Source: Aneurinibacillus sp. (GTDB lineage: Bacteria; Bacillota; UBA5301; DYFA01). From it: a stretch of 64,000 bases of DNA. The position numbers were made by a program, and so were the translations under genes. Under the pieces are notes generated by a model. It was not told the DNA's origin, ran no database searches, and worked only from the letters and a program-made list of their open reading frames with translations. Below are positions 4,591 to 22,582 of the stretch, piece after piece (position 1 is the stretch's first letter; each line of letters opens with the position of its first letter). Where the stretch lies: assembly GCA_020725425.1 (NCBI GenBank), contig DYFA01000008.1, forward strand, positions 27,993 through 91,992, read 5' to 3'.

Positions 4591-5742
4591 TCACTTCCGG
4601 GCCCGGATCACGAGGACCAGCCCCACCGCGGCCAGGAGCGCGTCGGGCCCGAAGGCCGCGATCGCCGGCGGGAGCGTCCCCCCCTGCCCCAGGGCGGTGA
4701 AGAGCGTCATCACCACGTAGTAAGCAAAGATGATGATCACCGCCAGCCCGAAGCCCACGGAGGTCGCCCGGCGGTGGTGCTGGATACCCAGCGGCACCCC
4801 TACCCAGGCGAAGATCAGGCTTACCAGGGGGGTGGCGAAGCGCAGGTAGTACTGGACCGAGAACTCCTTGAAGCGGTCATGGGCCGGCCCGAGCAGCGTC
4901 ATCTGCTGGCGGAGCTCGGCCATGGTCATCGTCTCGGGGCTCTTCTGAGCCCTCGGGATATCCTCCGGCCGCTCCTTGAGGGCCACCCGCTGCTTTCCAC
5001 CCCGGAAGGCCACCTCCGTCACCTGCCCCTTTCCCTGAGGCCCCGAAAACAGATACGTCTTCCCGTTTCGGAAGTACCACCCGTCGGTCTCCCAGACGAG
5101 GGCGTCGGCCGTGGTCTGGCGGAACGGTTCCCCGTCCCGCCACTCGAGCATGGCCACGTTGTGCATGGTAGCCGTCGCCCGGTCGAAGTCAGTGGCGTAG
5201 ATGAACCGGATCAGCCGATCCCCCTCGAAGTCCCGCAGCATCACGTTCTTGGTGACCCGGGGCAGCTCCCCTCCGTTGATCTCCTCAATCATCACCCGCT
5301 GCATCTCACTGTTGGCCCATGGTACCAGCCGCTCGTTCATCCCCAGAGTCACCGCGACCACCAGCGCCCCGATGACCAGGACCGGCGCCATCAGCCGGTA
5401 GAAGCTCACCCCACTGGCCCGCATCGCCACCAGCTCACAGGTCGAGGAGAGCCGGGAGAGCCCGAGGAGTGTCCCCAAGAGCACCGCCATCGGGAAGGTC
5501 CAGACCATGATCTGGGGCAGCTTCAGAAGGAGCAGACGCACGGCGGAGTCCACCGGTGCGCCTCCCGTCACCAGGCTGGCGAGGTTCACCAGTTCCCCGC
5601 CGACAAAAAGGGTGGTGAAGGCGGCCACGCCGTACAACAGCGGCCCCATCACCTGAAGGAAGATGTACCAGTCGAGCGTCCGCAGCGGCCTCCGAAGCCC
5701 TCGCGGCTGCCGCTCCGCGCTGCGCGGCTGCGCCGTCGTCAT
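4591..5742 (-). CDS. lptF: LPS export ABC permease, LptF/LptG (YjgP/YjgQ) family
   Basis: 383 aa, [17 protein letters not shown]..., with N- and C-terminal TM clusters and a central periplasmic domain. It overlaps the lptB stop by 4 nt. Confidence 0.85.
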
Positions 5743-6458
5743 AGTGAGAATTTCTCTCCCAGGTAGACCTGGCGGGCCCGGGGGTCGTTGGCGATCGCCT
5801 GGGCGTCCCCGTCCGCCAGGATCTGTCCCTGATGCAGGATGTAGGCCCGGTCGGTGATAGCCAGCGTCTCCCGGACGTTGTGGTCGGTGATCAGGACTCC
5901 CAGCCCCTTGGCCCGGAGGTAGGCGATGATCGCCTGGATGTCCGCCACGGCGATGGGGTCCACTCCGGTGAAGGGCTCGTCGAGCAGCAGGAAGGAAGGG
6001 GCGGTGGCCAGGGCCCGGGCGATCTCAGTGCGGCGCCGCTCGCCGCCGGAGAGCACCCCGCCCCTCACGCCCCGGACCTTCTCCAGGTTGAACTCAGCGA
6101 GGAGCTCCTCGAGGCGTCCCTTCCGCTCCGCGCCGGTCAGGGGCGTCACCTCGAGCACGGCGCGGAGGTTTTCCTCGACCGTGAGCTTGCGGAAAATCGA
6201 CGGTTCCTGGGCCAGGTAGCCGATCCCCAGCCGGGCTCTCCGGTACATCGGCAGGTGGGTGATGTCTCGGCCGTCGAGGGAGATATGGCCGCCCTCGGTC
6301 GGCTCGAGGCCGACGATCATGTAGAAGGTGGTGGTCTTCCCGGCGCCGTTCGGCCCGAGCAGGCCGACCACCTCGCCTGGCCCCACCGAGAGCGAGACCC
6401 GGTCCACCACCCGCCGCCGGCGGTACGTCTTCACCAGGTTTTCGGCCACCAGGGCCAC
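5739..6458 (-). CDS. lptB: LPS export ABC transporter ATP-binding protein
   Basis: [51 protein letters not shown]... [28 protein letters not shown] has the canonical LptB N-terminus and motifs. Confidence 0.9.
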
Positions 6459-6461
6459 GCT

Positions 6462-7061
6462 CTACTCCCCCTTCTCCCCGGCCTGCTCCACCGGGACGGT
6501 CACCCGGGAGCCTCCCTGAGCCTTGATCTTCGATCCGGCCAGGAAGAAGACGATCTCCTTGCCCCGCAACACGTTGCCGTCCGAGCGCACCTCAGGGTCC
6601 CCGCTCAGCACCACCTGCCGCTCCTTGCTGTCAAAGAACGCCGCGGCGGCGGTGGCGACGGCCTTGCCGGAGACGAGCCGCACCTCGCCCTGGGCCCGGG
6701 CCGTCCGGGCCTTCAGGTCGCAGGTCAACGTCCGGGCGGTCAGGACGAACCGGTCAGGCTCGGACTGCTCCAACCGGACTCCACCCTCCACCTTGACCTG
6801 CCCTGTCGCCTCGGCGTACTCCAACCGCTCACCGCTCAAGGTCAACCTGCCGCTGACCAGGGTAGCCGGCGCTCCGGACCCGCCGGTCACCACGCTGACC
6901 CGGCGGTTCACGTCGTATTCGACGGTCTCGCCGGAGAGTTCAACGGTCTCTCCGGCCGCCGCCCCCGGGCCGGCGGCCGCCGCCAGGGCCAGGAGGAGCA
7001 CCCCGAGCGGCGTCAACCAACGCCACTTCCTCATCCCTGCATCCCTCGCTGCCTCCTTCAT
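6462..7061 (-). CDS. lptA: LptA (OstA-N fold periplasmic LPS-bridge protein)
   Basis: Signal peptide, then repetitive β-jellyroll-like sequence (GETVELSGETVEYDV...GEVRLVSGKAV...VVLSGDPEV). It sits between lptC and lptB as in lptCAB operons. Confidence 0.7.
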   Translation of the reverse strand: MKEAARDAGMRKWRWLTPLGVLLLALAAAAGPGAAAGETVELSGETVEYDVNRRVSVVTGGSGAPATLVSGRLTLSGERLEYAEATGQVKVEGGVRLEQSEPDRFVLTARTLTCDLKARTARAQGEVRLVSGKAVATAAAAFFDSKERQVVLSGDPEVRSDGNVLRGKEIVFFLAGSKIKAQGGSRVTVPVEQAGEKGE

Positions 7062-7705
7062 CCCTGTCCCCCGGAGAAACGCACCCCGCCCGTGGCCCGG
7101 ACCCGCTTCAAGGCCAAGTCGCCCTGGATCTCCGGTGCCTGGAGCGTGGTCAAGCCGCGAGTGAAAGTCACCTGGCGGCCGGCGGCGCCCGTCGCCCGAA
7201 ACTCCTCCCGCCCTGCCTCCCAGCGCAGCGTCTCCGCCTTGAGGGAACCCCCGTTGCTGGCGGAGAGGGTCACCCCTCCATTGAAGACCAGCGCCTGGCT
7301 GCCGGACTCGAGCAGACCCTTCTCCGCTGTGAGGCGGGTGACCGTCCCGTCGGAGTTGTAATATGCCGCCTCAACACCGGTCAACCAAACCTCGCCGGTC
7401 CCGGTGGCCGATTCCGCCTGGGCCAGACTCAGTTCCCAGGCCACCCGGCCGGTAGAGGGGTCGATCACTCTCAGGCGCGTGGCCTGGAATTCGAAACCCG
7501 GCACTTTCGCTGTGGAGGAGCGGGAGGCGGGCCGGCGGTGGACTGGCCGCTGCTCCCGCCTCAGACCGGTCCGGACCAGGTTTCCCAGGACAGCCAGAAC
7601 CAGCGCCACGCCGAGAGCCACAAGCCAGGAGAGCGCCCGCCGCCCGGAAGGACCCACAACCTCACCCACTCGCCAGGATAGACGTTCGGCACCATTATAA
7701 CACAC
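7058..7705 (-). CDS. lptC: LptC-like membrane-anchored LPS transport protein
   Basis: Single N-terminal TM (LSWLVALGVALVLAVLGNLV) plus a ~150-aa β-rich periplasmic domain, immediately upstream of lptA-lptB. Confidence 0.55.
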   Translation of the reverse strand: MCYNGAERLSWRVGEVVGPSGRRALSWLVALGVALVLAVLGNLVRTGLRREQRPVHRRPASRSSTAKVPGFEFQATRLRVIDPSTGRVAWELSLAQAESATGTGEVWLTGVEAAYYNSDGTVTRLTAEKGLLESGSQALVFNGGVTLSASNGGSLKAETLRWEAGREEFRATGAAGRQVTFTRGLTTLQAPEIQGDLALKRVRATGGVRFSGGQG

Positions 7706-7779: not shown

Positions 7780-8697
7780 ATGAGCACCAAGCCCGTGCTG
7801 GAGGCCAGCGTCGTCATCCCCACCTACAACCGGCGCGAGTTTCTCCGGAAGTGCCTGCTTTCCCTCTTTGAGCAGACAGCCCCCGGGGACTCTTATGAGA
7901 TCGTGGTGGTGGACGACGGTTCGACTGACGGGACCGGCGACCTGGTGGCCGAGTTGTCCTCGCAGGCGCCTTGTCGCGTCTTTTGCCAGCACCAGCCGAA
8001 CTCAGGCCGGGCCCGGGCGCGCAACGCCGGTATTCGGGCCGCCCGCGGGCGGATCATCATTTTCCTCGACAGCGACATGGTGGTGGACGAGGGATTCATC
8101 GCCGCCCACCTGCGCTGCCAAAAGGAGCCGGGACGCATCGTCCACGGCCAGGTGATCAACACCCCGGACTTCTCCGACCCCCGCCTGGCCAAGCCGAAGT
8201 TGACCGACTACTCCCGGGCCTTCTTCGCCACGGGCAACGTCTCCGTCGAACGGGAGAAGCTCCTTGAAGCAGGACTCTTTTCTGAAGCGTTTACCGAGTA
8301 CGGCTGGGAGGACCTGGAGCTGGGAACCCGCCTGCGCCACCTGGGACTCGTGGCCGTCCGCTGCCCGGAGGCCCGGAGCTGGCACTACTTGCCCCGCTTG
8401 ACCTTTGCCCAGGTATCGTCGATTGTCCGGCGGGAGCGGGAGCGGGGCCACATGGCCGTCCTCTATTACCGGATGCACCCGGAGTGGCGGGTTAAGCTGG
8501 CCACCCTGCTCACCCCGGCGTTCTTCGCCTTGGACCGGTTGCTTTCCCTGGGACACTGGCCGGAGCGCCCCGCCACTCTGCGGCTCCTCGCCCGCCTCGA
8601 CCGGCCGGCGACCCATCTTCTCTTTCGGGCGCTGACCGCACTAGTGCGCAACCACGCTTACGCCGAGGGGTTGCGAGAAGGACTCGCCAGATACTAA
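7780..8697 (+). CDS. Family 2 glycosyltransferase
   Basis: VVIPTYNRREFLRKCLLSLFEQT...YEIVVVDDGSTDGT...IIFLDSDMVV shows the GT-A DxD signature. It is divergent from lptC. AAAGGAGGG lies upstream of the ATG at 7780 with a long spacer. Confidence 0.8.
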   Translation: MSTKPVLEASVVIPTYNRREFLRKCLLSLFEQTAPGDSYEIVVVDDGSTDGTGDLVAELSSQAPCRVFCQHQPNSGRARARNAGIRAARGRIIIFLDSDMVVDEGFIAAHLRCQKEPGRIVHGQVINTPDFSDPRLAKPKLTDYSRAFFATGNVSVEREKLLEAGLFSEAFTEYGWEDLELGTRLRHLGLVAVRCPEARSWHYLPRLTFAQVSSIVRRERERGHMAVLYYRMHPEWRVKLATLLTPAFFALDRLLSLGHWPERPATLRLLARLDRPATHLLFRALTALVRNHAYAEGLREGLARY

Positions 8698-8724: not shown

Positions 8725-9516
8725 CTAAAGGCGTATCGCCTCAGCCAGCGCGATCAGGGGCGCGGTAGCCAGGGGCGTCATCGCTACCTTCCCCTTCCTG
8801 AGAAGCTTCGGGCCCTCTCCGGCAGCGCACTCCTCGACTTGCAGCGAGACCACCCTGGTCCGGTCCGGGCGGGGGCTGATCTCCAGGCTGATCCCGACGG
8901 AGCCGGCCTCCAGCGGCGTCCTGTGCTCCGCCCGGTCCGTCGGGTCCGGTCGGTCCGCCAGATCCAGACGGGCGAGCAGCCATGACCTGACTGTGACCCC
9001 TAAGCCGTCTGAGTCGGGCAGGACCATCCGAAGGAAGTCCAACAGGGCAGCCAGCCTCCGCTGCCCGTCCGCCTCATTCAGGACAACGTTGAACTGGACC
9101 CGGCTGACCATAGGTTTGGGGCCAGCGAGGCAGACGTCCGCGGCCAGCTCGTGGCAGTATCCGGTCACACTGAACCAACCTTTCCCCACCCGGTCTTCGA
9201 CCGGCTTCTTGAAAGCGAAGCCGCGCTCGCGGAGGGCCGCCTGGAGCGCCTCGCCCGTGACCCCCAGGCTGTTGGCCTTCCCGGCGTCCCGCGGAGGCTG
9301 AACGTCCGGGTGATACCACTCCGCCGGCAAGGCCGCAAACGTGTGGCCTGGGAAGACCATGGCGAGTTCCTGGGTCGCTCGCCGCGTCTTCGGCGTCCGC
9401 GACCGAACGTAGAGGGTGACGTGCCTCTCCTCGATCCTCAGGTGTTCCAGGTTGTGGGGGTCGAAGCGGCTGAAGACGCGGGCTACTTCGTCCGGGAACT
9501 GGCCATAACCATTTCT
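8725..9516 (-). CDS. Hypothetical protein (263 aa after start refinement to MRNGYGQFPDE...)
   Basis: The ORF-track start at 9669 was replaced by the ATG at 9514-9516, which is preceded by GGAGGG. No family recognised. Confidence 0.45.
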   Translation of the reverse strand, partial: RNGYGQFPDEVARVFSRFDPHNLEHLRIEERHVTLYVRSRTPKTRRATQELAMVFPGHTFAALPAEWYHPDVQPPRDAGKANSLGVTGEALQAALRERGFAFKKPVEDRVGKGWFSVTGYCHELAADVCLAGPKPMVSRVQFNVVLNEADGQRRLAALLDFLRMVLPDSDGLGVTVRSWLLARLDLADRPDPTDRAEHRTPLEAGSVGISLEISPRPDRTRVVSLQVEECAAGEGPKLLRKGKVAMTPLATAPLIALAEAIRL

Positions 9517-9545
9517 CATCGATAAACCCTCCGCCATCAAAAGAT

Positions 9546-9561
9546 TGTGACTTTTTTCACA
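9546..9561. promoter_or_regulatory. Perfect CRP/FNR-type palindrome TGTGA-N6-TCACA, 30 nt upstream of the 8725..9516 start, inside a ~200-bp AT-richer intergenic island
   Basis: TTGTGACTTTTTTCACAG read directly, followed by an A8 tract. This is the lowest-GC stretch in the window. Confidence 0.35.
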
Positions 9562-9724
9562 GACTGATTTGAAAAAAAAGCTCCGTTTATCTAACACTGT
9601 GCGCGCCGCCTGCCCGGTGGGTACCTGTGCGTTCCAGGCCACTTTTCCCGTGCAGTCATATTCTAGCACACTTTGTGAATGTTGTCACCATCCTGCTACA
9701 CTAGCTGCTCCCAGGTCGGGCCCC

Positions 9725-10933
9725 TCAAACGCTGCGGTGACGCACCTCCTCCCAAGCGGTAACGATGCCCTCCGCTATCCGGTCGGTGGCGCCCGGACCG
9801 CCCATCCGTTCCCGTCCCGCCGCGGCCCGGCAGGCGTATTCCGCGGGGTCGTTCAGGATGCGCCAGGCCGTTCCCGCCACTCGGCTGAAGTCGCGTTCTA
9901 CGAGTGCCACCGCCTCGCCTAACAGCTTCTTCTGGGCGGCAGCAAAGCGGGGAGTGAACTGTGCCCCCCGCCCGGGGAACGCCACCACCGGGCGGCCCAG
10001 CCCCGCCGCCTGCTCGTTGGCGGTTCCAGCGAGGCCCACCACCAAGTCGCTCGCCAGGACCACGTCACCGAACCGCCCGAGGACTAGGGTCAGGACGGGG
10101 CGAGGGCTGGAGGGCTGCGGCGCGTGGCCGTCCCGGCCGGGAAGGGGAGCCAGGTGGCTGGCCGCATTGAGGAGGACTGCTTCGCCGCCGGCAGTACAGA
10201 TGGCCTCAGCAGCCCGGTGGGGGTCCAGCGCCGGCGCCAGCGCCACGGGGAAGGCCATCGGCTGGGAGACCAACCCCACCAGGCGGGCGGCCACGGCGGT
10301 CAGGTCCTCCAGGTTGAGATAAGCTTCCTGGCGGCTGCCGGGGAGCAAGGCCACTACAAAAGCGGCCGGGCCCAGCAGGGGGCGGAGGTTGGCCCCGGAG
10401 ACGTCCAGGCAGTCCATCATGGCGTTGCCGACGTATTCGGCGGGCACCCCCTCGGAGCTTAGGTGGGTAGCGGTCAGGGCGTCACGGGGAAAGACCTTCA
10501 GGCACTCCCGCATCAGCGCCACTTCCACTGCGAAGTGCGGAGCGATGTAGTCGGACTTGGCGGTCGGCAGGAAGACGGTGGGGCGGCGCGCCTGCCGGCG
10601 GGCCAGGTAGAGCACGAGTATGTCCCCCACCGCCACCACCAGGTCCACTTCGCGGCCCAGGCGGCGCACCTCGGCTGCCTGACCCAGAAGGAGCGGAAGC
10701 AGCCCCGCCCGCAGGTCGGCGAGCAGGTTTGCCAGGGAGTTGCGGGTGAAGCCGCCGCTTGGCATCGCCCGGCGGGGACCGACCAGCGGGATGCCCGCCT
10801 TGGAGTACGGCTTCCCCTCGCCCACCACAGCCAGCGCTTTTACCTCAACCTCCGGCGCCGCCCGGCGGAGTTTGGCAGCCAGCGTGGCGCCAATCAAATC
10901 CTCGCCGTGGCCGTTGCTCAGAAAGAGAATCAC
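9725..10933 (-). CDS. Lipid-A-disaccharide synthase-related protein (LpxB-like GT19 paralogue)
   Basis: VILFLSNGHGEDLIGATLAAKLRR... resembles the LpxB N-terminus (AGEASGD). ...ALLPGSRQEAY... matches LPGSR of LpxB. The start was refined to the GTG at 10931-10933 (GGGGGAG 8 nt upstream), because the ORF-track start overlaps the upstream nucleotidyltransferase. Confidence 0.65.
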   Translation of the reverse strand: MILFLSNGHGEDLIGATLAAKLRRAAPEVEVKALAVVGEGKPYSKAGIPLVGPRRAMPSGGFTRNSLANLLADLRAGLLPLLLGQAAEVRRLGREVDLVVAVGDILVLYLARRQARRPTVFLPTAKSDYIAPHFAVEVALMRECLKVFPRDALTATHLSSEGVPAEYVGNAMMDCLDVSGANLRPLLGPAAFVVALLPGSRQEAYLNLEDLTAVAARLVGLVSQPMAFPVALAPALDPHRAAEAICTAGGEAVLLNAASHLAPLPGRDGHAPQPSSPRPVLTLVLGRFGDVVLASDLVVGLAGTANEQAAGLGRPVVAFPGRGAQFTPRFAAAQKKLLGEAVALVERDFSRVAGTAWRILNDPAEYACRAAAGRERMGGPGATDRIAEGIVTAWEEVRHRSV

Positions 10934-10961
10934 CGGACCCGCTCCCCCAAGGGCTCTCCTC

Positions 10962-12062
10962 TCATACCCGGGCGACCACTTCCCCGGGGCGCAGGATGGA
11001 CCCGGCGGCCACCTCCGCCGCGGCCTCGACGACGCAGGTGTCCGAGAGGACGCTCCCCTCGCCCACCGCCGCGCCGGGTTCGATCCGGCAGCCTTGGCCG
11101 AGCACGCACTGGGACACCCGGCTCCCCGCTTCCAGCACCGCCCCGGCCCACACGACACTCGTCTCCACCACGGCACCTTCCCCCACTACCACGCCCGGGC
11201 CGAGCACCACGTCGCCGAGGAGCTTCGCCCGGGGAGCGACCCGGGCGCCGTCACCCACCACCACCCGACCCTGCACCAGCGCCTGAGGGGAGACCTCCGC
11301 CCCGCGCCCGAGCACCAGCGGCCGGTCCTCCCCGGGCAGGACAACCCCCGGCGTGTAGAGGCGGACCGCCCCCTGCAGGATATCCTGGTGGGCCAAGCGG
11401 TACTGTTGCAGGGTGCCCACGTCGCACCAGTAGCCGTGCATGCGGTAGCCGTAGAACGGCCGCCCTTCCGCCACGAGGCGTGGGAAGAGCTGCTTGCCGA
11501 AGTCGTAGAACTCCCCGGCCGGGATCAGGTCGAGAACCCCGCGCTCGAAGAGGTAGATGCCGGTGTTGGCCAGGAGCGACAGGGCCTCATGGGGCTCCGG
11601 CTTCTCCTGGAACCCGGTGATGCGGCCGTCCGGAGCAGTCACCACCACGCCGAAGTGGCGCGGATCGGACACCGAGCGGAGGGCGATCGTCGCCAGCGCC
11701 CCCCGTTGCCGGTGGAAGGCCAGCATGGCGCTAAGATCGATGTCGGTCAGGGCGTCGCCGGCGATGACGAGAAAGGTGTCGCTGAGGAAATCGGCTACTT
11801 TCTTGACCCCGCCGGCCGTTCCCAGGAGCTCCTTCTCCCGGGAGTAGACCAGGTTCATCCCGAACCGGCGGCCGTCTCCGAAGTGCTCCACGATGCTCTC
11901 CGGCCGGTACCAGAGATTGGCCACCACCTCGCGCACGCCGTGGTACCCCAGCAGGGCCAGAATGTGCTCCATCGCCGGGCGGTTCACGATCGGCACCATC
12001 GGCTTGGGCAGGTTGGCGGTCAGGGGATCGAGGCGGGAGCCGACGCCAGCCGCCAGGATCAT
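10962..12062 (-). CDS. Sugar-1-phosphate nucleotidyltransferase with C-terminal left-handed β-helix (GlmU/GMP-like)
   Basis: MILAAGVGSRLDPLTANLPKPMVPIVNRPAMEHIL (NTP_transferase G-x-G-x-R-L) plus C-terminal hexapeptide repeats. The start is set at the internal ATG at 12062; the ORF-track start at 12140 remains possible. Confidence 0.8.
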   Translation of the reverse strand: MILAAGVGSRLDPLTANLPKPMVPIVNRPAMEHILALLGYHGVREVVANLWYRPESIVEHFGDGRRFGMNLVYSREKELLGTAGGVKKVADFLSDTFLVIAGDALTDIDLSAMLAFHRQRGALATIALRSVSDPRHFGVVVTAPDGRITGFQEKPEPHEALSLLANTGIYLFERGVLDLIPAGEFYDFGKQLFPRLVAEGRPFYGYRMHGYWCDVGTLQQYRLAHQDILQGAVRLYTPGVVLPGEDRPLVLGRGAEVSPQALVQGRVVVGDGARVAPRAKLLGDVVLGPGVVVGEGAVVETSVVWAGAVLEAGSRVSQCVLGQGCRIEPGAAVGEGSVLSDTCVVEAAAEVAAGSILRPGEVVARV

Positions 12063-12152
12063 CGCCCTGAGCCCCCGCAACCCCCCCGGTCCGTGCGGTG
12101 TAAGGCGCCTTTCGGTTGCCACACGCAGTCCCCCCTCCATCTGTTCCCGCGG

Positions 12153-13439
12153 CTAACGGGCCGCGGGTTCGCCAGTGTCGAAGTGGCGGGCGATCTCCTT
12201 CGCCACCAGGGCGGCCAGGCGGCGGGCGGCGCCCGGTTCGCCCATCGTGCGGCGGAGGGTCTCCGCCATCACCATCCGCCGGCGGGAGTCAGCCAGCAAC
12301 CCCGCCGCTTCTTCAGCCATGGCCCCGGGACTGACTTCGCCCCGCAGCTCCGGCACGACGTAGGCTTGGGCCAGCCGGTTGGGCCAGGCGGCGTAGGGCA
12401 TGCGGGCCACCACCCGGGGGAGGATCCGGCGCTTCAGCGCCTTGCCGAGGCGCGGCAAGTTGCCGAGGAGGCCGGCCAGCCCTTCCAGCGGAATGCGTTC
12501 GGGATGGGTGAGCGGCAGGGCGACGACCATCGGTACCCCGAGGTAGCCCAGTTCCGCGGTGTTCGTCCCCGGAATGGTGAGCGCCAGATCCGCCGCGGCC
12601 ATGAGGTCGAAGCGAGCTCCCCGCCGGACGGGGATCTGCGCTCCACGCTCAGTGGCGATGAGCCCGGCCTTCGTCCCGTCCCCTCCGGCTTCGGGGAGGA
12701 ACCGGGCAGAGACTCCGACTTCCGCCGCCAGCGGCCCCCGCAGCGCTCGCTCGATCTGCCCCTCCTCAGTGAAGGGGGAGAGGCTCAGGGCGAAGGCCGT
12801 CTCCGGCCGGCGCTCGCGGAGCAGCTCGGCCGTCCGGGCGAACAACGGGGTCATAAACTCGACCTCCGCCGGGCGGCTGCCGGGAAGGAGCAGGACGAGG
12901 TCGCGGCCGGCCACTCCCAGTTCCTCCCGCACCGCGGCTGGCTTCCGCTGCGGCCGGACCGCGTCCAGCATGAGGTTCCCGACGACGACCACTTTCTCCT
13001 CCGGGACCCCTTTGGCGAGGAGCTTCTCCCGGATGACCCCGTAAGGCACCGCAAACCGAGCGAAAGCGTCGGTCCAGTTCACGAAGCCTTCGGTGTAGGC
13101 GAGGGCTGGATAGCCTAACCGCTTCCGCAGGAGTACGGCGTTCGTCAGCTCTCCGCCCAGGAAGAGCACGGCGCCCCGGCGCCCGGGGTTGAAGCCCGGA
13201 GGCCGGAGGCCGAGCACGGCATAGCGCAGGAACTCCGTTGGGCCGAAGGCGGCGTCCACCCCCGGCAGGGCGGCCACCACCTGGCGTTCGCACCCGCTGG
13301 CAAAGGTGCACGGTGGCACGAAGACCGTGACCCGGGCGCCGGGCAGGGCCTCCTTCAACGCCGGGGCCGCCGGGGCGACCCACCCGGCCACCTCGCCGGG
13401 ACTGTTGGCGGTTAGAACCAGGTCACACGTCTCCGCCAC
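12153..13439 (-). CDS. Second LpxB-like (GT19-related) glycosyltransferase paralogue
   Basis: MAETCDLVLTANSPGEVAGWV..., ...LLLPGSRPAEVEFMTPLF... (LpxB LPGSR motif), 428 aa. It overlaps the lpxB stop. Confidence 0.65.
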   Translation of the reverse strand: MAETCDLVLTANSPGEVAGWVAPAAPALKEALPGARVTVFVPPCTFASGCERQVVAALPGVDAAFGPTEFLRYAVLGLRPPGFNPGRRGAVLFLGGELTNAVLLRKRLGYPALAYTEGFVNWTDAFARFAVPYGVIREKLLAKGVPEEKVVVVGNLMLDAVRPQRKPAAVREELGVAGRDLVLLLPGSRPAEVEFMTPLFARTAELLRERRPETAFALSLSPFTEEGQIERALRGPLAAEVGVSARFLPEAGGDGTKAGLIATERGAQIPVRRGARFDLMAAADLALTIPGTNTAELGYLGVPMVVALPLTHPERIPLEGLAGLLGNLPRLGKALKRRILPRVVARMPYAAWPNRLAQAYVVPELRGEVSPGAMAEEAAGLLADSRRRMVMAETLRRTMGEPGAARRLAALVAKEIARHFDTGEPAAR

Positions 13440-14580
13440 GATTCTTCCCCCGGCCTTCCTCTGCCGCCTCCAGAACGACTGCCGCCGCCCGCCCGGCCGC
13501 CCCCGGTTCCCCCAGCTTCGCCACCACTGCCTGAAGACGCTGCCGGGTCCTCTCCCGGCGGTCCGGGTCGCGCAAATAACCTTCGACCTCCTCGGCCAAA
13601 CGCTCGGCCGTCAGGTCTTCCTGCACCAGCTCCGGCACGACCTCCTCGCCGGCCAGGATGTTGGGGAGGGCGTAGTGGCGCACCTTCACCAGGCGGCGGG
13701 CGAGCCAGGCGGTGAAGGCGCCGACGCGATAGACCATCACCATGGGAGTGCCGAAGAGCGCCGCTTCCAGAGTCGCCGTCCCCGAGGCCACCATCAACAC
13801 GTCAGCCGCCTGCATGACGTCGTGCGCCGCCGGGGAGATGTGCACTGGCAGGCCGGAAGCGGCGGCCAGTCCGGCCACCCGTTCCCGGTCGATCGTCGGC
13901 GCGAGGCCCAAGGCCCATCGCAACCCGTCCAGCCGCCCGGCCAGTCTCTCTCCGGCGGCCAGCATCACCGGCAGGAGCTGCTCCACCTCCTGCCGCCGGC
14001 TCCCCGGGAGGAGGCCGACCAGGTACTCCCCCGGCCTCACCCCGAAGGCGGAGCGGGTCTTCTCCCGGTTGACCGGGGGGCGGATGAGATCCAGAAGGGG
14101 GTGGCCGACGAAGGTCACCCGCGCCCCGGCTTTCCGGTACACCTCCGCCTCAAAGGGGAAGACGGAGGCCACCCTGGTGCAACTCTTCGCCACCTTCGCG
14201 GCGCGCCCCTCTCCCCAGGCCCAGGCGGCCGGAGGGATGTAGTACACTGCAGGGATCCCGAGGCGGGCGGCGTACGCCGCCACCCCGAGATTGAACCCGC
14301 CGAAGTCGATCAACACCACCGCGTCGGGGCGCTCCCGGCGCAGGGCCCGCTTCACCTCGCCCTGCCACCGCCGGAAGAGCGGAAGGCGCCGGAGGGCCTC
14401 CCCAAAACCGATGAGGGACACCCGCGTGGGGTCGAAGAGCAGCCGCACCCCCGCCTCGGCCATCCGCTGGCCTCCGATGCCGAAGAGTTCCAGGCCGGGC
14501 CGGCGGCGGCGGAGCTCCCGGGCCAGCGTCGATCCGTGAAGATCGCCCGAGGCCTCTCCGGCCAGGAGCATGATCTTCAT
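13423..14580 (-). CDS. lpxB: Lipid-A-disaccharide synthase
   Basis: MKIMLLAGEASGDLHGSTLARELRRRRPGLELFGIGGQRMAEAG... LLPGSRRQEV... is the canonical LpxB. Confidence 0.85.
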   Translation of the reverse strand: MKIMLLAGEASGDLHGSTLARELRRRRPGLELFGIGGQRMAEAGVRLLFDPTRVSLIGFGEALRRLPLFRRWQGEVKRALRRERPDAVVLIDFGGFNLGVAAYAARLGIPAVYYIPPAAWAWGEGRAAKVAKSCTRVASVFPFEAEVYRKAGARVTFVGHPLLDLIRPPVNREKTRSAFGVRPGEYLVGLLPGSRRQEVEQLLPVMLAAGERLAGRLDGLRWALGLAPTIDRERVAGLAAASGLPVHISPAAHDVMQAADVLMVASGTATLEAALFGTPMVMVYRVGAFTAWLARRLVKVRHYALPNILAGEEVVPELVQEDLTAERLAEEVEGYLRDPDRRERTRQRLQAVVAKLGEPGAAGRAAAVVLEAAEEGRGKNRGGDV

Positions 14581-15368
14581 ATCCCCACCACCGAAAGCCC
14601 GTGCTCCTCCGCCAGGCGCCCCACTGCCGGCCGGTCCACCAGAAAGGTGGCGCCTGCCTCAACCGCAAGACAGGAGATCCCCGCCGACGCCATGGTCACC
14701 AGGGTCTCCGGCCCGACCGTAGGCACGTCGAACCGCGGATCCTGCCGGGGCTTGGCCACTTTCACCGCCACGGAACCCCCCCGCCCCAGCTCTCCCCCCC
14801 GGCGCAGGCAGGCGTCGGTCCCCTCGATCGCCTCCACCGCCAGGACAGCCAGGTTCTTGACCACCACCGTCTGGCCGAGATCCAGCCCGGCGATCTCCTT
14901 GGCCCGGGCGAAGCCGTACCGGATGTCGGCCCATTCCCGCTCGTCCGGCGCCCGGCGGGAGAGGAGCCCCGCCGGCGCCAGGAGGTGTCCCAGGTACTCG
15001 TCCTGGCGCTGGACCGTGACCCCGGCGGCCGCCAGCTCCTCGACCACCGCCAGCAGGAGCGTGTCGTCGTCCCGGTCGGCCACCCGCGAGAGCAGCGCCG
15101 CCATCCGTTCGTCCGGGACAAAGTCCCGGAAGAGCAGTTCCTTGGTGACCTTCCCGGCCAGGAGGGCCCGGACCACTCCCTCCGCCCGCAGGAGGGAAAG
15201 CAGCCGCTCAAGCTCGCCCAGGGGCACGCGGTGGAAGCTTCCCCCTTCTGCGGAAAGACCGGGGTCGGTCCCCCCGACCAGGGCCACCACCACCGGCGCT
15301 TCGCCCCGGCGGCGCGCCTCCCGGGCCGCCTCGACCGGCAGCGCCCCCCGGCCCGCCAGAATCGCCAT
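14577..15368 (-). CDS. lpxI: UDP-2,3-diacylglucosamine hydrolase LpxI (DUF1009)
   Basis: MAILAGRGALP... matches the LpxI N-terminus, and ...VAVKVAKPRQDPRFDVPTVG matches the LpxI C-terminal motif. There is an ATGA overlap with lpxB. Start chosen at 15368; the TTG at 15407 and the ATG at 15392 are alternatives. Confidence 0.75.
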   Translation of the reverse strand: MAILAGRGALPVEAAREARRRGEAPVVVALVGGTDPGLSAEGGSFHRVPLGELERLLSLLRAEGVVRALLAGKVTKELLFRDFVPDERMAALLSRVADRDDDTLLLAVVEELAAAGVTVQRQDEYLGHLLAPAGLLSRRAPDEREWADIRYGFARAKEIAGLDLGQTVVVKNLAVLAVEAIEGTDACLRRGGELGRGGSVAVKVAKPRQDPRFDVPTVGPETLVTMASAGISCLAVEAGATFLVDRPAVGRLAEEHGLSVVGI

Positions 15369-15496
15369 CCTCCCGGCGCTCCCCACTGCCATCCCCCTCA
15401 AACGCAACGGGCACCAGGCCAGCGATCAGACAGGATGGCGTGGTGCCCGCTGTGACCCCTCCGTTATTCTGCACGGAAGGAAGTTTTTCCTCTCGG

Positions 15497-16303
15497 TTAC
15501 CGGCAGATGCCCCGCTCGGCGCTCCGGATGAACCGGATGAAGTGGTCGATCTCAGGATATCCCTCGAGCTGGTTCTCCATCTGCTCGATGGCCTGGGTCA
15601 CGTTGAGGTCGGACCGGTACAGGATCTTGTAGGCCCGCTTGATCTCCTCCCGGACGTCCTGGGGCACGCCCTTGCGCCTGAGGCCCACCACGTTGATCCC
15701 GACCACCCGCGCCGGGTGGCCGTCCACCGTGACGAAGGGCGGGACGTCCTTGACGACCTTGGTGCAGGCGCCGATCATCGCCATCCGCCCGATCTTGGTG
15801 AACTGGTGAATCCCGGAGAGGCCGCCCACCGTGACGTGGTCCTCGATCACCACGTGGCCGCCGAGCGCCGCCCCGTTCACGATCACGCAGTGGCTGCCGA
15901 TCTGGCAGTCGTGGTCGATGTGGGCGTAGGTCATGACCAGGTTGTCGTTGCCGAGGCGCGTCTCGCCGCCGCCCCCCTCGGTCCCCCGGGTGATGGTGGC
16001 GTACTCGCGGATCAGGTTGTGGTCGCCGATGACGAGGTAGCTCTTCTCACCCTTGAACTTCAAATCCTGGGGTTCGATCCCGAGCTGGGCGCCGGCGTAG
16101 ATCTTGTTGTTCTTGCCGATGGTCGTCCACCCGGTGATCACGACGTGGGGGCCGATGATCGTCCCCTCACCGATCTGGACGTTCTCTCCGATGACGGAGT
16201 AGGGGCCGATCTCGACGTCCACGCCGATGACCGCTCCCGGGTGAACGATCGCCGTCGGATGGATCTTCCGGCTGATCGGGACCACCTTTGCTTCGGGTTT
16301 CAA
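15497..16303 (-). CDS. lpxA: Acyl-ACP--UDP-GlcNAc O-acyltransferase
   Basis: KIHPTAIVHPGAVIGVDVEIGPYSVIG hexapeptide repeats plus the C-terminal LpxA domain. TTG start at 16303 with GGGGGAGG 8 nt upstream. Confidence 0.9.
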   Translation of the reverse strand: MKPEAKVVPISRKIHPTAIVHPGAVIGVDVEIGPYSVIGENVQIGEGTIIGPHVVITGWTTIGKNNKIYAGAQLGIEPQDLKFKGEKSYLVIGDHNLIREYATITRGTEGGGGETRLGNDNLVMTYAHIDHDCQIGSHCVIVNGAALGGHVVIEDHVTVGGLSGIHQFTKIGRMAMIGACTKVVKDVPPFVTVDGHPARVVGINVVGLRRKGVPQDVREEIKRAYKILYRSDLNVTQAIEQMENQLEGYPEIDHFIRFIRSAERGICR

Positions 16304-16462: not shown

Positions 16463-16912
16463 CTACTTTTCTGCTTTTCTCGCCTCGCCAGCCATGCTGG
16501 CAAAGATGAGCTCCGCCTCGGCTACCATCGCTCCGTCCACCGTCGCCCGACCGGAGGCTTTGGCGACGCCGGCCTTGGCCCGTCCCAGCTCGACTTCGAT
16601 GATGAGCTGGTCGCCCGGGACCGCCGGCCGCCGGAACCGGGCGCGGTCGATCCCGGCGAGGACCGGTATTCGGCCCTCGAGCCCCGCGAGGGAGAGGTAG
16701 ACCGCCCCCGCCACTTGAGCCATGGCCTCCAGGATCAATACCCCCGGCATCAACGGGCGCCCGGGATAGTGGCCCAGGAACTGGGGCTCGTTCACCGTCA
16801 CGTTCTTTACACCCTTGCCCCGCACTCCCGGCTCCAGCTCGAGCAGCCGGTCCACCATCAGGAACGGGTAGCGGTGCGGCAAGATGGCCATGAGTTCACC
16901 GATGTCCACCAC
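16463..16912 (-). CDS. fabZ: 3-hydroxyacyl-ACP dehydratase
   Basis: VDIGELMAILPHRYPFLMVDRLLE aligns with B. subtilis FabZ [25 protein letters not shown]. GTG start with AGGGAGGTG upstream. Confidence 0.9.
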   Translation of the reverse strand: MVDIGELMAILPHRYPFLMVDRLLELEPGVRGKGVKNVTVNEPQFLGHYPGRPLMPGVLILEAMAQVAGAVYLSLAGLEGRIPVLAGIDRARFRRPAVPGDQLIIEVELGRAKAGVAKASGRATVDGAMVAEAELIFASMAGEARKAEK

Positions 16913-17768
16913 AAGACACCTCCCTGTCCAAGATCGCCGCCTGGAGGACGGCCTCCGCCAGGGCGGCGTTGAGGGCGTGTCCCGAGCGCAAGCCGAGCAC
17001 GTGAGCCCGTACGGGCGGGATCAGAGCCAGGTCGCCGAAGAGGTCCAAAAGCTTGTGCCGGGCCACCTCGTTCGGAAAACGGAGGGGGGCGGCATAACCC
17101 TCATCGCCGATGACCACCGCGCACTCCAGGCTCCCCCCGAGTGCCAGCCCCTCCGCCCACATTCGCTCGATGTCCGCCAGAAACCCGATGGTCCGAGCCG
17201 GCGCCAGCTCCGTCCGGAAGTCGTCCCGGCCCGGCACGAACTCGGCCAGTTGCACCCCGACTGCCGGGTGGGGGTGCGTGAAGACGTAGGTGAAACGGGG
17301 CGCCTCAGCCGGGATCGCCACGAGCGACGCCTCCCCCCGGGTGACTGCCACCGGGCGGTCCAGCGTCAGCACGGAGACTTCCCCCTCCTGCCGCACGATC
17401 CCCGCCTCAGCCAAAAGGCCGGCGAAGACGGCGGCGCTCCCGTCCCCCACCGGTACTTCCGGACCGTCCAGGCGCAGCAGGGCGTTGGTGACACCGACGC
17501 CGCGCACGGCGGCCAGCAGGTGTTCCACCGTCGCCACCTCCACCCCGGCGCTGTTCCGCAGGGTAGTGCAGAACGACGAGCGGCAGACCGCCCCGGCGTT
17601 GACCGGGATCTCCGGCTCGCCCGGCAGGTCGGTCCGGATGAACCGCAGGCCGGAGTCGGGCGGCGCCGGCTCGACCGTGAGCAGAACCGGTTTGCCGCTG
17701 TGCAGGCCGATTCCGGACAGCGCGGCCGGACGGGCCAGAGTGGCCTGGGAAAGGAGTGCTTCAGGCAC
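16896..17768 (-). CDS. lpxC: UDP-3-O-acyl-GlcNAc deacetylase
   Basis: QATLARPAALSGIGLHSGKPVLLTVEPAPPDSGLRFIRTD aligns with E. coli LpxC [40 protein letters not shown]. The start was refined to the GTG at 17768 (GGGGGAGG upstream); the ATG at 17840 has no RBS. Confidence 0.85.
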   Translation of the reverse strand: MPEALLSQATLARPAALSGIGLHSGKPVLLTVEPAPPDSGLRFIRTDLPGEPEIPVNAGAVCRSSFCTTLRNSAGVEVATVEHLLAAVRGVGVTNALLRLDGPEVPVGDGSAAVFAGLLAEAGIVRQEGEVSVLTLDRPVAVTRGEASLVAIPAEAPRFTYVFTHPHPAVGVQLAEFVPGRDDFRTELAPARTIGFLADIERMWAEGLALGGSLECAVVIGDEGYAAPLRFPNEVARHKLLDLFGDLALIPPVRAHVLGLRSGHALNAALAEAVLQAAILDREVSCGGHR

Positions 17769-18645
17769 GGACCGGTCGACCTCCCCCTGACTTCTGCGCC
17801 ATCGGCGGCCGTGGCGCCGGGCGCGGCACGGTTCCTGCATTCGCTCCGGCCGCCCGAATTCCTTTCCCTTTTCTTCCTCCGCCCTCTGCGGGCAAGCCCG
17901 GCAGACTCTCGAGGAGCCTCCGGTACCGCTCGCCCAAGAGCGACGTGGGAGCAGTGAAAACTTTCGCCGGAGACCCGTCCTCGACGATCTGCCCGCTGTC
18001 CATGAGGATGACCCGGTCGGCCGCCCGCAAGGCGAACGACAGCTCGTGCGTCACCACAACCATCGTCCGCTCGCCGTCCCGGACCAGTTCCTCCATCACG
18101 TCGAGCACCTCCCTTACCAGGAGGGGGTCGAGGGCCGCCGTCGGCTCGTCCCAGAGCATGAGGGCCGGGGAGAGGGCCAGCGCGCGGGCGATCCCCACCC
18201 GCTGCTGTTCGCCCCCGGAAAGCTGGGACGGCCGGCGGTCCGCCTTGGCCGCCAAGCCCACCCGGTCCAACGCTGTTTCGGCCGCCTCCAGCGCCTCCTC
18301 CACCGGTCGCCCGGCGGCGATCAGCCCCAGAGCGATGTTCTGCCGGGCCGAAAGCCGCGCCACGAGGTTGGAGTGCTGAAAGACGAACCCGATGCGCCGG
18401 CGGGCCGCGGCCAGCTCGGGCGGGGTGAGGCTCAGAAGGTTGCGCCCCTCGAACCAGATCTCCCCCGCGTCCGGCTCAAGCAAGCGGTTGAGGCAGCGGA
18501 CGAGGGTGGACTTCCCGCAGCCGCTGGGCCCCATGACCACCAGCGTCTGGCCGGCCGGTACGACCAGATCCACCCCGTCGAGCGCCACGATCTCGCCGTA
18601 GCGCTTGCGCAGCCCCCGCACATCAAGGACGGGCTCCCTCTTCAC
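17761..18645 (-). CDS. FtsE/LolD/MacB-type ABC ATP-binding protein
   Basis: GPSGCGKSTL Walker A, GEIWFEGRNLLSL (compare FtsE GKIWFSGHDITRL), and signature QLSGGEQQRVGIARA identical to the FtsE/LolD-group signature. It has a G/P/A-rich ~50-aa tail. Confidence 0.85.
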   Translation of the reverse strand: MKREPVLDVRGLRKRYGEIVALDGVDLVVPAGQTLVVMGPSGCGKSTLVRCLNRLLEPDAGEIWFEGRNLLSLTPPELAAARRRIGFVFQHSNLVARLSARQNIALGLIAAGRPVEEALEAAETALDRVGLAAKADRRPSQLSGGEQQRVGIARALALSPALMLWDEPTAALDPLLVREVLDVMEELVRDGERTMVVVTHELSFALRAADRVILMDSGQIVEDGSPAKVFTAPTSLLGERYRRLLESLPGLPAEGGGRKGKGIRAAGANAGTVPRPAPRPPMAQKSGGGRPVRA

Positions 18646-18649
18646 CGTG

Positions 18650-21194: not shown

Positions 21195-21821
21195 CTACAG
21201 GCGGAAGTTCGCCTCCACGGGACCCTCCACCTCCACCACGTTCTTGTCCAGGTCGATGCGGATCGTCTCGCCCCGGATGGTCTTGTCGTCCTCCTCCTGG
21301 ATCACGACCTCGCCGGTCAGGATCAAGAGGGACTCGCGGTCGCGGTACTCCACGGTTCTGGCCGTGGCCGTCCGCTGCTTCTCCCTGAGGCTGACGTTCC
21401 CGGTGGCGATGAGCGACCGGTTCTTGGCCTCGTATTCCAGCCGGTCGGCTGTGAGGACCAGCTTGTCGCCTTTCTCCGGATCCTTGTCCTTCTTGACCAG
21501 CGTGACGTCGGTGTCCAGGAGGTATTTCTCCTCGTCGAACCAGGCGGAGAACCTGTCGCCCCACAGAGTGAGATCCTCCTGGGCCAGCCGGGCCCCTCCG
21601 TTCAGGACGGCGAACTTCTTCTTGGTGTCATAGACGATCTCGCCCGCCCACAACCTGACCTCACCCTGGACCAGCTCGATTGTCCCCTTGATGGTCACCA
21701 GGTCTTTCTCCAGCTTGAAGGCGCGGTTCTCCTTGACGGAGATGCGCAACTCCGCCGCCAGCCCTACTCCCGTCAGGGCCAGGGCGATGGCCAGAGCCAG
21801 CACCGCCCTCTGCGTTCTCAC
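21195..21821 (-). CDS. Second LptA/OstA-N-domain periplasmic protein
   Basis: Signal peptide, then repeated β-strand motifs (TIKGTIELVQGEVRLWAGEIVYD..., LTGEVVIQEED...) typical of the OstA-N jellyroll. 208 aa. Confidence 0.65.
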   Translation of the reverse strand: MRTQRAVLALAIALALTGVGLAAELRISVKENRAFKLEKDLVTIKGTIELVQGEVRLWAGEIVYDTKKKFAVLNGGARLAQEDLTLWGDRFSAWFDEEKYLLDTDVTLVKKDKDPEKGDKLVLTADRLEYEAKNRSLIATGNVSLREKQRTATARTVEYRDRESLLILTGEVVIQEEDDKTIRGETIRIDLDKNVVEVEGPVEANFRL

Positions 21822-22582
21822 TCCCGCTCCCTCCCCTCTGCCGGCCTCTCTCCCCCGCCGCCGAGCCCCGGCGCCACGAACGGCTCGCTTCGGCCGGTGC
21901 GGATGCTCAACTCCGCTGTCCCCCGGATCTCCCAGCTCCCGTCAGCCAGCGAGTAAATGATCGCCTCGCCGGTCAGGCGTTCCCCGTTCTCCCCCACCAG
22001 CACCACTCCACCAGAGGCGGTCAACGACTCCGCCTCCACCTCCACTGCCAGCCGGTCCGCCCGGAACCAGGCCCCTTCGATCTTGGCCTCCACCGGCTGG
22101 GCGCTCGTCACCTGCCCGGTCAAAGTGTCCCACTGCAGTTCCCGGGCGCGCAGCAGGTCTCCGTTCTCCCGGGAGACGACGATGTTCCCATATAGGGAAA
22201 AACTGCCCCGTTCCGGGTAATACACGCCCCTGTCGGCCACGACGTAGAGGTACGGCCGGCCCTCCCGGTACACCGCCCCCCGCCGCACGAGGTAGAAGTC
22301 CACCTGTCGGCTGTCCCGGGAGGTCCTGACCGTCGCCACCTGGAGTTCCCACTCCTTCCGCCCTTGATTCCGCCCGACCAGGCGGATATCGCGGAAGTGG
22401 AAGCCTGGTTGCTCGTGCCCGGCGCCGGCCGGGCGGCTCTCGCCCACCGGAGCCTCCGGCGTCCGGCCGAGCAGCACCAGCGCCGCCACCGCCAGGAAGA
22501 CCGCGGCCCCCCCGAGCCAGGGGGAGGACAAGGCCTTCCGGAGCCGTCCGGCGCCGGCCGCTCTCTCCATCCCCGCAACCAT
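21818..22582 (-). CDS. Second LptC-like membrane-anchored protein
   Basis: Start refined to the ATG at 22580-22582 (MVAGMERAAG...). Single TM (WLGGAAVFLAVAALVLLG) plus a β-rich domain. TGATG stop/start overlap with lptD. Confidence 0.55.
   Translation of the reverse strand: MVAGMERAAGAGRLRKALSSPWLGGAAVFLAVAALVLLGRTPEAPVGESRPAGAGHEQPGFHFRDIRLVGRNQGRKEWELQVATVRTSRDSRQVDFYLVRRGAVYREGRPYLYVVADRGVYYPERGSFSLYGNIVVSRENGDLLRARELQWDTLTGQVTSAQPVEAKIEGAWFRADRLAVEVEAESLTASGGVVLVGENGERLTGEAIIYSLADGSWEIRGTAELSIRTGRSEPFVAPGLGGGGERPAEGRERE

Follow-up and report, generated by a model that had tools for sequence, protein, structure and literature searches.

Two LpxB-related families of predicted glycosyltransferases, linked to lipid A genes by gene order and gene fusion, may extend lipid A in two-membraned Firmicutes

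In a 64,000-nucleotide stretch of an Aneurinibacillus sp. genome (assembly GCA_020725425.1, contig DYFA01000008.1, forward-strand positions 27,993 to 91,992; hereafter the window), the gene for lipid-A-disaccharide synthase, lpxB, is followed by genes for two divergent relatives of this enzyme, designated P2 (product of 12153-13439) and P1 (product of 9725-10933). The nucleotidyltransferase encoded between them (10962-12140) is referred to as NTPtr and a glycosyltransferase encoded nearby (7780-8697) as GT2. P1 and P2 represent two further deep, widely conserved sister families of LpxB, whose ties to lipid A genes consist in synteny and natural fusions. Since they are linked or fused to such genes across several phyla, their probable role is to attach additional sugars to lipid A, and with modest confidence we favor the reading that P2, P1 and GT2 are lipid A/lipopolysaccharide (LPS) glycosyltransferases that would act on the cytoplasmic side, after LpxB and before the product is flipped.

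The original prediction for this DNA had described three LpxB-family genes at 9725-14580, only one of which (13423-14580) was taken for a bona fide lpxB, with the other two divergent and separated by an NTP-transferase/LbH enzyme. All four open reading frames (ORFs) are present on the minus strand at exactly these coordinates, and P1 and P2 are the same as the NCBI gene calls P0121 (402 residues) and P0001 (428 residues), with 100% identity over 100% of the query in both cases. The product of 13423-14580 passed the LpxB equivalog test with 293.5 bits against TIGR00215 (cut-off 190.25), scored 300.7 bits against PF02684 and matched Escherichia coli LpxB (5W8S) with an E value of 9e-53. Residue roles, namely catalytic D98 and uridine diphosphate (UDP)-binding P198-R201, T277 and E281, were taken from the paper on the E. 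coli LpxB structure (PMC5785501). In the alignment of the window LpxB with the E. coli and related enzymes, Asp92, Phe96 and Asn97 occupy invariant columns, Asp92 being the in-register counterpart of the E. coli catalytic Asp98 within the motif ID.P.FN, and the nucleotide-binding motifs read LLPGSR and SGTATLE.

P2 failed the same test, reaching only 62.8 bits against TIGR00215 in a match limited to residues 150-233; with PF02684 its 52.7 bits exceeded the domain threshold of 22.6 but covered residues 150-232 only. Profile-profile comparison nevertheless revealed homology between LpxB and P2 over the full length (E 7e-39), and the AlphaFold2 model of P2 (predicted local distance difference test, pLDDT, 92.8) adopts a GT-B fold whose top match in the PDB is LpxB 5W8X (E 1e-12). 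The UDP-binding motifs are kept as LLPGSRP and PGTNTAE, with WPN in place of the LPN of LpxB, while the LpxB N-domain motifs GE[AT]SGD, ID.P.FN and SPS.WAW are replaced by other, equally invariant ones. The P2 signature comprises NSPGE..W, PPCxFASGxE, FLGG(D/E), AYTEG, PGSRP, PGTNTxE and WPN, and in 20 diverse members the motifs N[SGA]PGE..W, PC.[FH]ASG.E, FLGG[DE], LPGS[RK]P, GTNT.E and WPN are invariant or nearly so. A further hallmark is a conserved stretch of about 25 extra residues (PLNxPExIPLEG...G) inserted after the GT..E strand and before the C-terminal helices. Conservation of the C-domain motifs together with change in those of the N-domain is expected of active glycosyltransferases with an altered acceptor and/or sugar. 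A full hidden Markov model search retrieved 491 cluster representatives at E<=1e-30, and the relatives, which number hundreds, come mostly from Halanaerobiales and from Firmicutes metagenome-assembled genomes (MAGs) of Limnochordia-like, Hydrogenispora and Capillibacterium type. No curated NCBIfam model covers the proteins of this family, including those of cyanobacteria and streptophytes; judged by its scores and its own invariant motifs, P2 is a separate family without a dedicated curated model.

P1, in turn, is a full-length member of TIGR03492 (327.8 bits, cut-off 219.2; profile positions 1-394 of 396), an NCBIfam hypothetical equivalog named 'lipid-A-disaccharide synthase-related protein' with no assigned function. 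The suggestion that both paralogues resemble this family is therefore borne out for P1 and not for P2 (39.5 bits). P1 had no Pfam match, no match to TIGR00215 or PF02684 at E<=0.01 and none in a sequence search against solved structures, and its homology to LpxB is visible by profile-profile comparison only (full-length, E 4e-22; P2 versus P1, E 2e-19). The AlphaFold2 model (pLDDT 91.2) again shows a GT-B fold. The signature motifs are SNGHGED, PSGGF, VGD, PTAKSDY, LPGSR, GTANEQ and GNxMMD; LLPGSR and AGTANEQ are kept, the Glu of the latter being shifted by one position relative to the GT..E of LpxB, and the LPN motif is absent. LPGSR is hence common to all three proteins, and neither P1 nor P2 scores as an ordinary LpxB duplicate. 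A recent tandem duplication as the origin of P1 and P2 was considered and rejected, as P2 and LpxB are only about 26% identical and each family has orthologues across phyla. P1 and P2 are ancient, distinct families derived from LpxB and not recent duplicates.

To place the genes in context, the best 80 of 247 P2 relatives, scanned with one genome per species, were taken as related loci and compared by tblastn with the window proteins; 48 of these loci have at least 5 kb on both sides. The 80 include Margulisiibacteriota, Saganbacteria, Sericytochromatia and Aerophobetes. The recurring gene order is lpxC-fabZ-lpxA-lpxI-lpxB-P2-msbA-(NTPtr)-P1-GT2. Of the 48 loci, 37 contain P1, 27 GT2 and nine a WaaL-like Wzy_C gene, and in 18 of them lpxB lies directly upstream of P2. 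An msbA gene directly follows P2 in 46 of the 71 loci with room for it and occurs elsewhere in the locus in 18 more; in most loci its product is 31-41% identical to E. coli MsbA in near full-length alignments. In Halanaerobiaceae the block consists of P2, GT2, msbA, P1 and Wzy_C, the gene adjoining P2 being 43% identical to the window GT2, and on a Saganbacteria contig the order P2-msbA-P1-GT4-GT9-GT4-GT9-PMT_2-GT2 (PMT_2 at L071 18327-19928) forms a waa-like core cluster. The window itself lacks msbA, the former place of which is the 12-bp gap at 12141-12152 between P2 and NTPtr, and no full MsbA is encoded in the 64 kb or in the 10 kb beyond either end. The gene is likewise missing from the closest relative (L007, 80% identity) and kept in the next (L008, 68%), which indicates recent loss or relocation of msbA in this lineage.

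Both of these relatives belong to a set of MAGs from PRJNA950955 (L007, L008, L010, L014, L018 and L061) that are labelled Betaproteobacteria, Chitinophagales, Bacteroidota, Patescibacteria or Syntrophothermus. They nonetheless carry this Limnochordia-type cluster, with P2 identities of 38-80%, and the taxonomic labels of these bins look unreliable.

Natural fusions join the same partners. LpxB is fused to P2 in P0347 (789 residues, LpxB part 332 bits) and in P0438 (814 residues, LpxB part 244 bits; a cluster of 92 members). A member of the P0438 cluster, P0475, recurs with identical length on 25 contigs of up to 628 kb from independent assemblies, and the LpxB+P2 fusion is therefore not an assembly artefact. 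GT2 is fused to P2 in both orders (GT2+P2, P0416; P2+GT2, P0460, from Eremiobacterota), P1 is fused to GT2 in P0209, and P0400 combines P2 with an LmtA-like domain (60 bits, below the cut-off); LmtA is the lipid A 1-phosphate methyltransferase of Leptospira. The LpxB::P2 fusion lies in the context lpxC-fabZ-GnnA-like-lpxA-[LpxB::P2]-ICMT-like, with LpxD and Lpt genes close by, and a P1 orthologue (39% identical, E 5e-71) adjoins the cluster.

On the contig of P0347 and at L096 8213-13064, a GFO_IDH_MocA (GnnA-like) oxidoreductase gene precedes lpxA and a PEMT/ICMT-like methyltransferase gene follows the fusion; lpxI was not found in the lipid A cluster at either place. By analogy with Leptospira, this hints that the fusion lineage (58% guanine-cytosine content, GC) may have a lipid A based on 2,3-diamino-2,3-dideoxyglucose (GlcN3N), possibly methyl-phosphorylated.

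The window, with a GC of about 68% and nearly all genes on the minus strand, is an outer-membrane gene cluster typical of two-membraned Firmicutes. The features around P1 and P2 are as follows, in the order lpxC-fabZ-lpxA-lpxI-lpxB-P2-NTPtr-P1, an ORF of unknown function, GT2 on the plus strand, and lptC-lptA-lptB-lptF/G.

16896..17840, minus strand: lpxC, opening the lipid A run (ORF; homologues in the corresponding place of 30+ related loci)
16463..16912, minus strand: fabZ (ORF; assigned by its place between lpxC and lpxA, as in related loci)
15497..16303, minus strand: lpxA (38-93%, mostly 60-72%, identity to the same-position gene of related loci)
14577..15407, minus strand: lpxI, UDP-2,3-diacylglucosamine diphosphatase (PF06230, 162 bits; PF17930, 115.6 bits)
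13423..14580, minus strand: canonical lpxB (TIGR00215, PF02684)
12153..13439, minus strand: P2, predicted LpxB-like GT-B glycosyltransferase (profile homology, motifs, model)
10962..12140, minus strand: NTPtr, hexose-1-phosphate nucleotidyltransferase with C-terminal LbH domain (PF00483)
9725..10933, minus strand: P1, 'lipid-A-disaccharide synthase-related' GT-B protein (TIGR03492)
9660..9688, minus strand: promoter-like site just past the P1 stop (GTGACA-17-TAGAAT, extended TG, 10/12 matches)
8725..9669, minus strand: lineage-specific ORF of unknown function (NCBI call of 264 residues)
7780..8697, plus strand: GT2 glycosyltransferase (PF00535, 113.6 bits)
7058-7705, minus strand: lptC (ORF; place conserved in related loci)
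6462-7061, minus strand: lptA (ORF; place conserved in related loci)
5739-6458, minus strand: lptB (ORF; place conserved in related loci)
4591-5742, minus strand: lptF/G (ORF; LptF_LptG, 276 bits; place conserved in related loci)

Within this run lpxI overlaps the start of lpxB by 4 bp, the P2 start overlaps the lpxB stop by 17 bp, and gaps of 12 and 28 bp separate P2 from NTPtr and NTPtr from P1, which starts at a GTG at 10933 preceded by a GGGGGAG ribosome-binding site. No convincing terminator was found between the genes from lpxI to P1. Two promoter-like sites were found, against 0.3 expected, and the one at 9660..9688 probably marks the end of the lpx-P1 transcription unit. Overlaps, short gaps, the lack of a terminator and this site fit a single transcription unit ending after P1, in agreement with the earlier proposal that both paralogues are co-transcribed with lpxI and lpxB. 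The ORF at 8725-9669 had no Pfam or NCBIfam match and, apart from L095 (the window's own contig), no homologue in the related loci; its GC at third codon positions (0.79) is below that of its neighbors. The promoter-like site at 9688-9660 belongs to this ORF, whose NCBI call is present in L095, where the lpt genes also bear Pfam labels. It is probably outside the conserved module and appears to have been inserted between P1 and GT2 in this lineage only.

The predicted enzyme between the paralogues is indeed an NTP-transferase (PF00483, 175.8 bits, above threshold) with an LbH domain. Its best NCBIfam match is the mannose-1-phosphate guanylyltransferase NF052502 (286.9 bits, cut-off 440), and its closest solved structure is the UTP-glucose-1-phosphate uridylyltransferase 8X7S (E 1e-75), followed by GDP-mannose pyrophosphorylases. 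It occurs in eight of the 80 related loci, always immediately upstream of P1. As a defining partner of P1 and P2, the role in which it had first been cast, NTPtr was consequently rejected; linkage is conserved to msbA, GT2 and sometimes a WaaL-like gene, and the fusions agree with these. The outcome named beforehand as refuting the original prediction, ordinary LpxB duplicates lacking any such linkage, was not observed, although the linked genes are others than the one it had proposed.

What is shown is homology, fold, the conserved nucleotide-binding residues, synteny and fusions; from these we infer a putative pathway, in its acceptor (the disaccharide of lipid A), its sugars, the sequence of its steps and their timing on the cytoplasmic side. 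LpxB would make the tetra-acyl glucosamine disaccharide at the cytoplasmic face of the inner membrane. P2, whose translation appears coupled to that of lpxB in the window and which is fused to LpxB in other genomes, may then glycosylate the LpxB product or a close derivative from a nucleotide sugar; on the available sequences, the step of P2 is best read as the one with the closest tie to LpxB. GT2 and P1 would add more lipid-A-proximal sugars before the product is flipped, in most relatives presumably by the MsbA encoded between P2 and P1, and, where a WaaL-like gene exists, the flipped product could be ligated to polysaccharide. In the lineage of the window, from whose module msbA is gone, NTPtr (of UDP-glucose or GDP-mannose type) probably makes the P1 donor. 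Of the two outcomes first put forward, an additional glycolipid or a modified lipid A, modification or extension of lipid A is thus the better supported.

Several observations weigh against this reading. The LpxB catalytic Asp position is occupied by Leu or Phe in P2, where a conserved acid, D/E97 (Glu in the window P2, Asp in about 90% of the family), follows 4-5 residues later, and in P1 the invariant Asp104 lies 3 residues past that position, this register being read from alignments in which the N-terminal loop varies by method. The P1 fold matches generic GT-B proteins, namely GT4 enzymes and UDP-N-acetylglucosamine (UDP-GlcNAc) 2-epimerase (E ~1e-10), LpxB ranking 42nd, and as such it teaches nothing about the acceptor. 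The P2 gene of Sericytochromatia is isolated, neither lpx genes nor msbA lying near it. In six loci of Capillibacterium/Hydrogenispora type (L012, L015, L017, L019, L020 and L021), lpxC-fabZ-lpxA-lpxI is followed directly by lptC-lptA-lptB and no lpxB is found within 10 kb (e.g. L017 15939-21226); an msbA-P1-GT2-P2-Wzy_C block lies just upstream, with P2 about 5 kb upstream. P2 homologues also occur in streptophytes, where no LPS is known, and Halothermothrix orenii, of a lineage that carries P1 and P2, has both lpxK and kdtA elsewhere in its genome (PMC2626281). Finally, beyond the E. coli LpxB structure, we found no paper on the TIGR03492/P1 or P2 families; the literature found on Limnochordia and LPS holds nothing on the P1 and P2 genes, Leptospira lpxB1/lpxB2 were met only as entries of a gene list, and neither the synteny of P1 and P2 with msbA and GT2 nor the P1+GT2 fusion is described in any paper found.

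The six loci in which lpxB is not nearby leave room for P2 as the disaccharide synthase, and P2, perhaps with P1, could be an LpxB isozyme for other precursors (GlcN3N-based or differently acylated) or a partner in a heteromeric LpxB. No family is closer to P2 than LpxB in sequence, profile or structure, the residues that bind UDP are retained, the LpxB::P2 fusions adjoin a GnnA-like oxidoreductase, and a paralogous partner is conceivable given that the E. coli LpxB dimer is swapped at its C terminus (PMC5785501). This is set against the canonical LpxB lying directly beside P2 in deep lineages (18 of 48 loci), and even fused to it, an arrangement in which redundant isozymes are rarely kept. 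Moreover, the N-domain motifs of LpxB are replaced by others just as invariant, the catalytic Asp is out of register, and the 62.8 bits of P2 compare with an LpxB equivalog cut-off of 190.25. We consider an alternative synthase unlikely, though worth keeping in mind.

The isolated P2 genes raise another possibility, that the product of P1 and P2 is an envelope glycolipid or glycoconjugate of its own, not based on lipid A, and that the two genes share with lpx and msbA nothing more than envelope regulation. With the Sericytochromatia P2 as query, relatives were found in the cyanobacteria Geitlerinema sp. FC II, 'Cyanobacteria bacterium SBC', Pantanalinema and Stenomitos and in the streptophytes Physcomitrium patens (LOC112285494), Ceratodon, Chlorokybus, Mesostigma and Closterium (proteins including P0320, P0324 and P0335); no angiosperm match was obtained in this search of limited sensitivity. 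The window P2 aligns with the moss protein from end to end at 31% identity (E 3e-51), whereas the window LpxB gives local matches only to the same protein (E 4e-7), and the signature motifs of P2 recur in the proteins of Sericytochromatia, cyanobacteria and mosses. Those of mosses are extended at the N terminus by about 75-90 residues, which might be a transit peptide. In Geitlerinema, P2 is divergent from a Wzy_C gene and 7 kb from lpxD, and in one cyanobacterial MAG it is unlinked to lpx genes. Together with the lone P2 of Sericytochromatia and the generic fold matches of P1, the unlinked gene of this MAG and the extended plant and algal homologues speak for a separate product. On the other side, P2 is fused specifically with lipid A enzymes, namely LpxB and the LmtA-like domain, msbA lies between P2 and P1 in most loci, and both families have GT9, GT4 and WaaL-like genes of the LPS core around them. 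We hence regard a separate glycolipid as quite unlikely.

It is highly improbable that P1 and/or P2 are catalytically dead relics of an LpxB duplication retained as structural or regulatory subunits, since, despite the out-of-register catalytic Asp and the missing LPN of P1, each family keeps dozens of invariant residues in the nucleotide-binding and inter-domain motifs of GT-B enzymes across ~40% identity, has an invariant or near-invariant acid a few residues from the position of the LpxB base, and persists across phyla.

A role of P1 and P2 in extending lipid A bears on the question of 3-deoxy-D-manno-octulosonic acid (Kdo). By tblastn, E. coli WaaA, LpxK and KdsB had no match in the window or in the local views of 92 other loci, nor within 10 kb beyond either window end, and KdsA matched in only two of 86 loci. 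The strong form of the idea, that P1 and P2 replace the Kdo route, was rejected as unproven, the absence being local and H. orenii having lpxK and kdtA; given the latter, P1 and P2 are not simply, or not in general, a replacement of that route. A wider proposal, which we put forward tentatively and hold to be unlikely as a whole, is that in diderm Terrabacteria (Limnochordia, Halanaerobiales, Margulisbacteria/Saganbacteria, Sericytochromatia and Cyanobacteria) P2, TIGR03492 and GT2 constitute an ancestral Kdo-independent route by which the disaccharide of lipid A directly receives its first core sugars. These enzymes would then stand behind cyanobacterial LPS, which is reported to be without Kdo, heptose and phosphate (PMC3087551), and the P2 gene would have passed to the plastid-bearing lineage and persisted in streptophyte algae and mosses.

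The remainder of the window also concerns the envelope to a large extent. Other genes of the outer-membrane cluster encode TamB, a sigma factor, BamA, OmpH and LpxD, and flagellar L- and P-ring, MreB, SpoIID and SpoIVB-type genes are encoded as well. A second Lpt-like set comprises LptF/G (24910-26037), an LptC-like protein (21818-22717) and an LptA/LptD_N-like protein (21195-21821), and adjoins a gene for a 765-residue protein without a family match (22582-24879). Directly upstream of lpxC, 17761-21124 encodes an 824-residue protein with no Pfam match and an ATP-binding cassette (ABC) ATPase; a like pair (820 residues plus ATPase) occupies the equivalent position in Capillibacterium (L017 12681-15892), which suggests that the pair may be a conserved, uncharacterised transporter of the outer-membrane cluster. 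At 61947-63614 lies a gene for an ArnT-like PMT_2 glycosyltransferase, and just outside the window (L094 7024-10004) it is preceded by genes for a GT4 (MraY/WecA-type), a WecB-type epimerase and a GT2 protein. From its composition, this set looks like a polyprenyl-phosphate-sugar route, which could act on the outer face to modify lipid A or some other polymer of the envelope.

To our knowledge, GT19 is treated as a family with one activity, that of LpxB. If P1 and P2 glycosylate the lipid A disaccharide, they would define, for two-membraned Firmicutes and the Cyanobacteria/Margulisbacteria group, a new branch at an early stage of LPS assembly. They would also provide candidate genes for joining core sugars to lipid A where Kdo is absent and a new marker for outer-membrane evolution in Terrabacteria, and with the homologues of streptophyte algae and mosses, plant genomes would be seen to contain a bacterial envelope enzyme that has gone unrecognised.

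Among known systems, LpxB itself (5W8S/5W8X; TIGR00215, PF02684, CAZy GT19) is the nearest, with which P1 and P2 share the GT-B fold, a similar length, full-length profile homology and the same operon, as well as the P-G-S-R pyrophosphate motif, the ribose-binding Glu of GT..E and, in P2, the (L/W)PN motif; like LpxB, they are predicted to be peripheral and not integral membrane proteins. They differ from it in having their own invariant motifs for the N-terminal loop, the D98 register and SPS.WAW, and in falling far below the equivalog cut-off while co-occurring with, and being fused to, a true LpxB. MurG (GT28) is likewise a GT-B enzyme related to LpxB that uses a lipid-linked acceptor, and the FLGGD loop of P2 may resemble a MurG-type glycine loop; in contrast to MurG, with which there is no significant sequence match, the context of P1 and P2 is lipid A and not peptidoglycan. 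WaaA/KdtA (GT30) and the waa clusters have no sequence relationship with P1 and P2, but the proposed role is analogous, that of a cytoplasmic GT-B enzyme which extends the lipid A disaccharide before MsbA, and, as in waa clusters, the P1 and P2 genes lie between lpxB/msbA and the genes for core glycosyltransferases and WaaL-like proteins.

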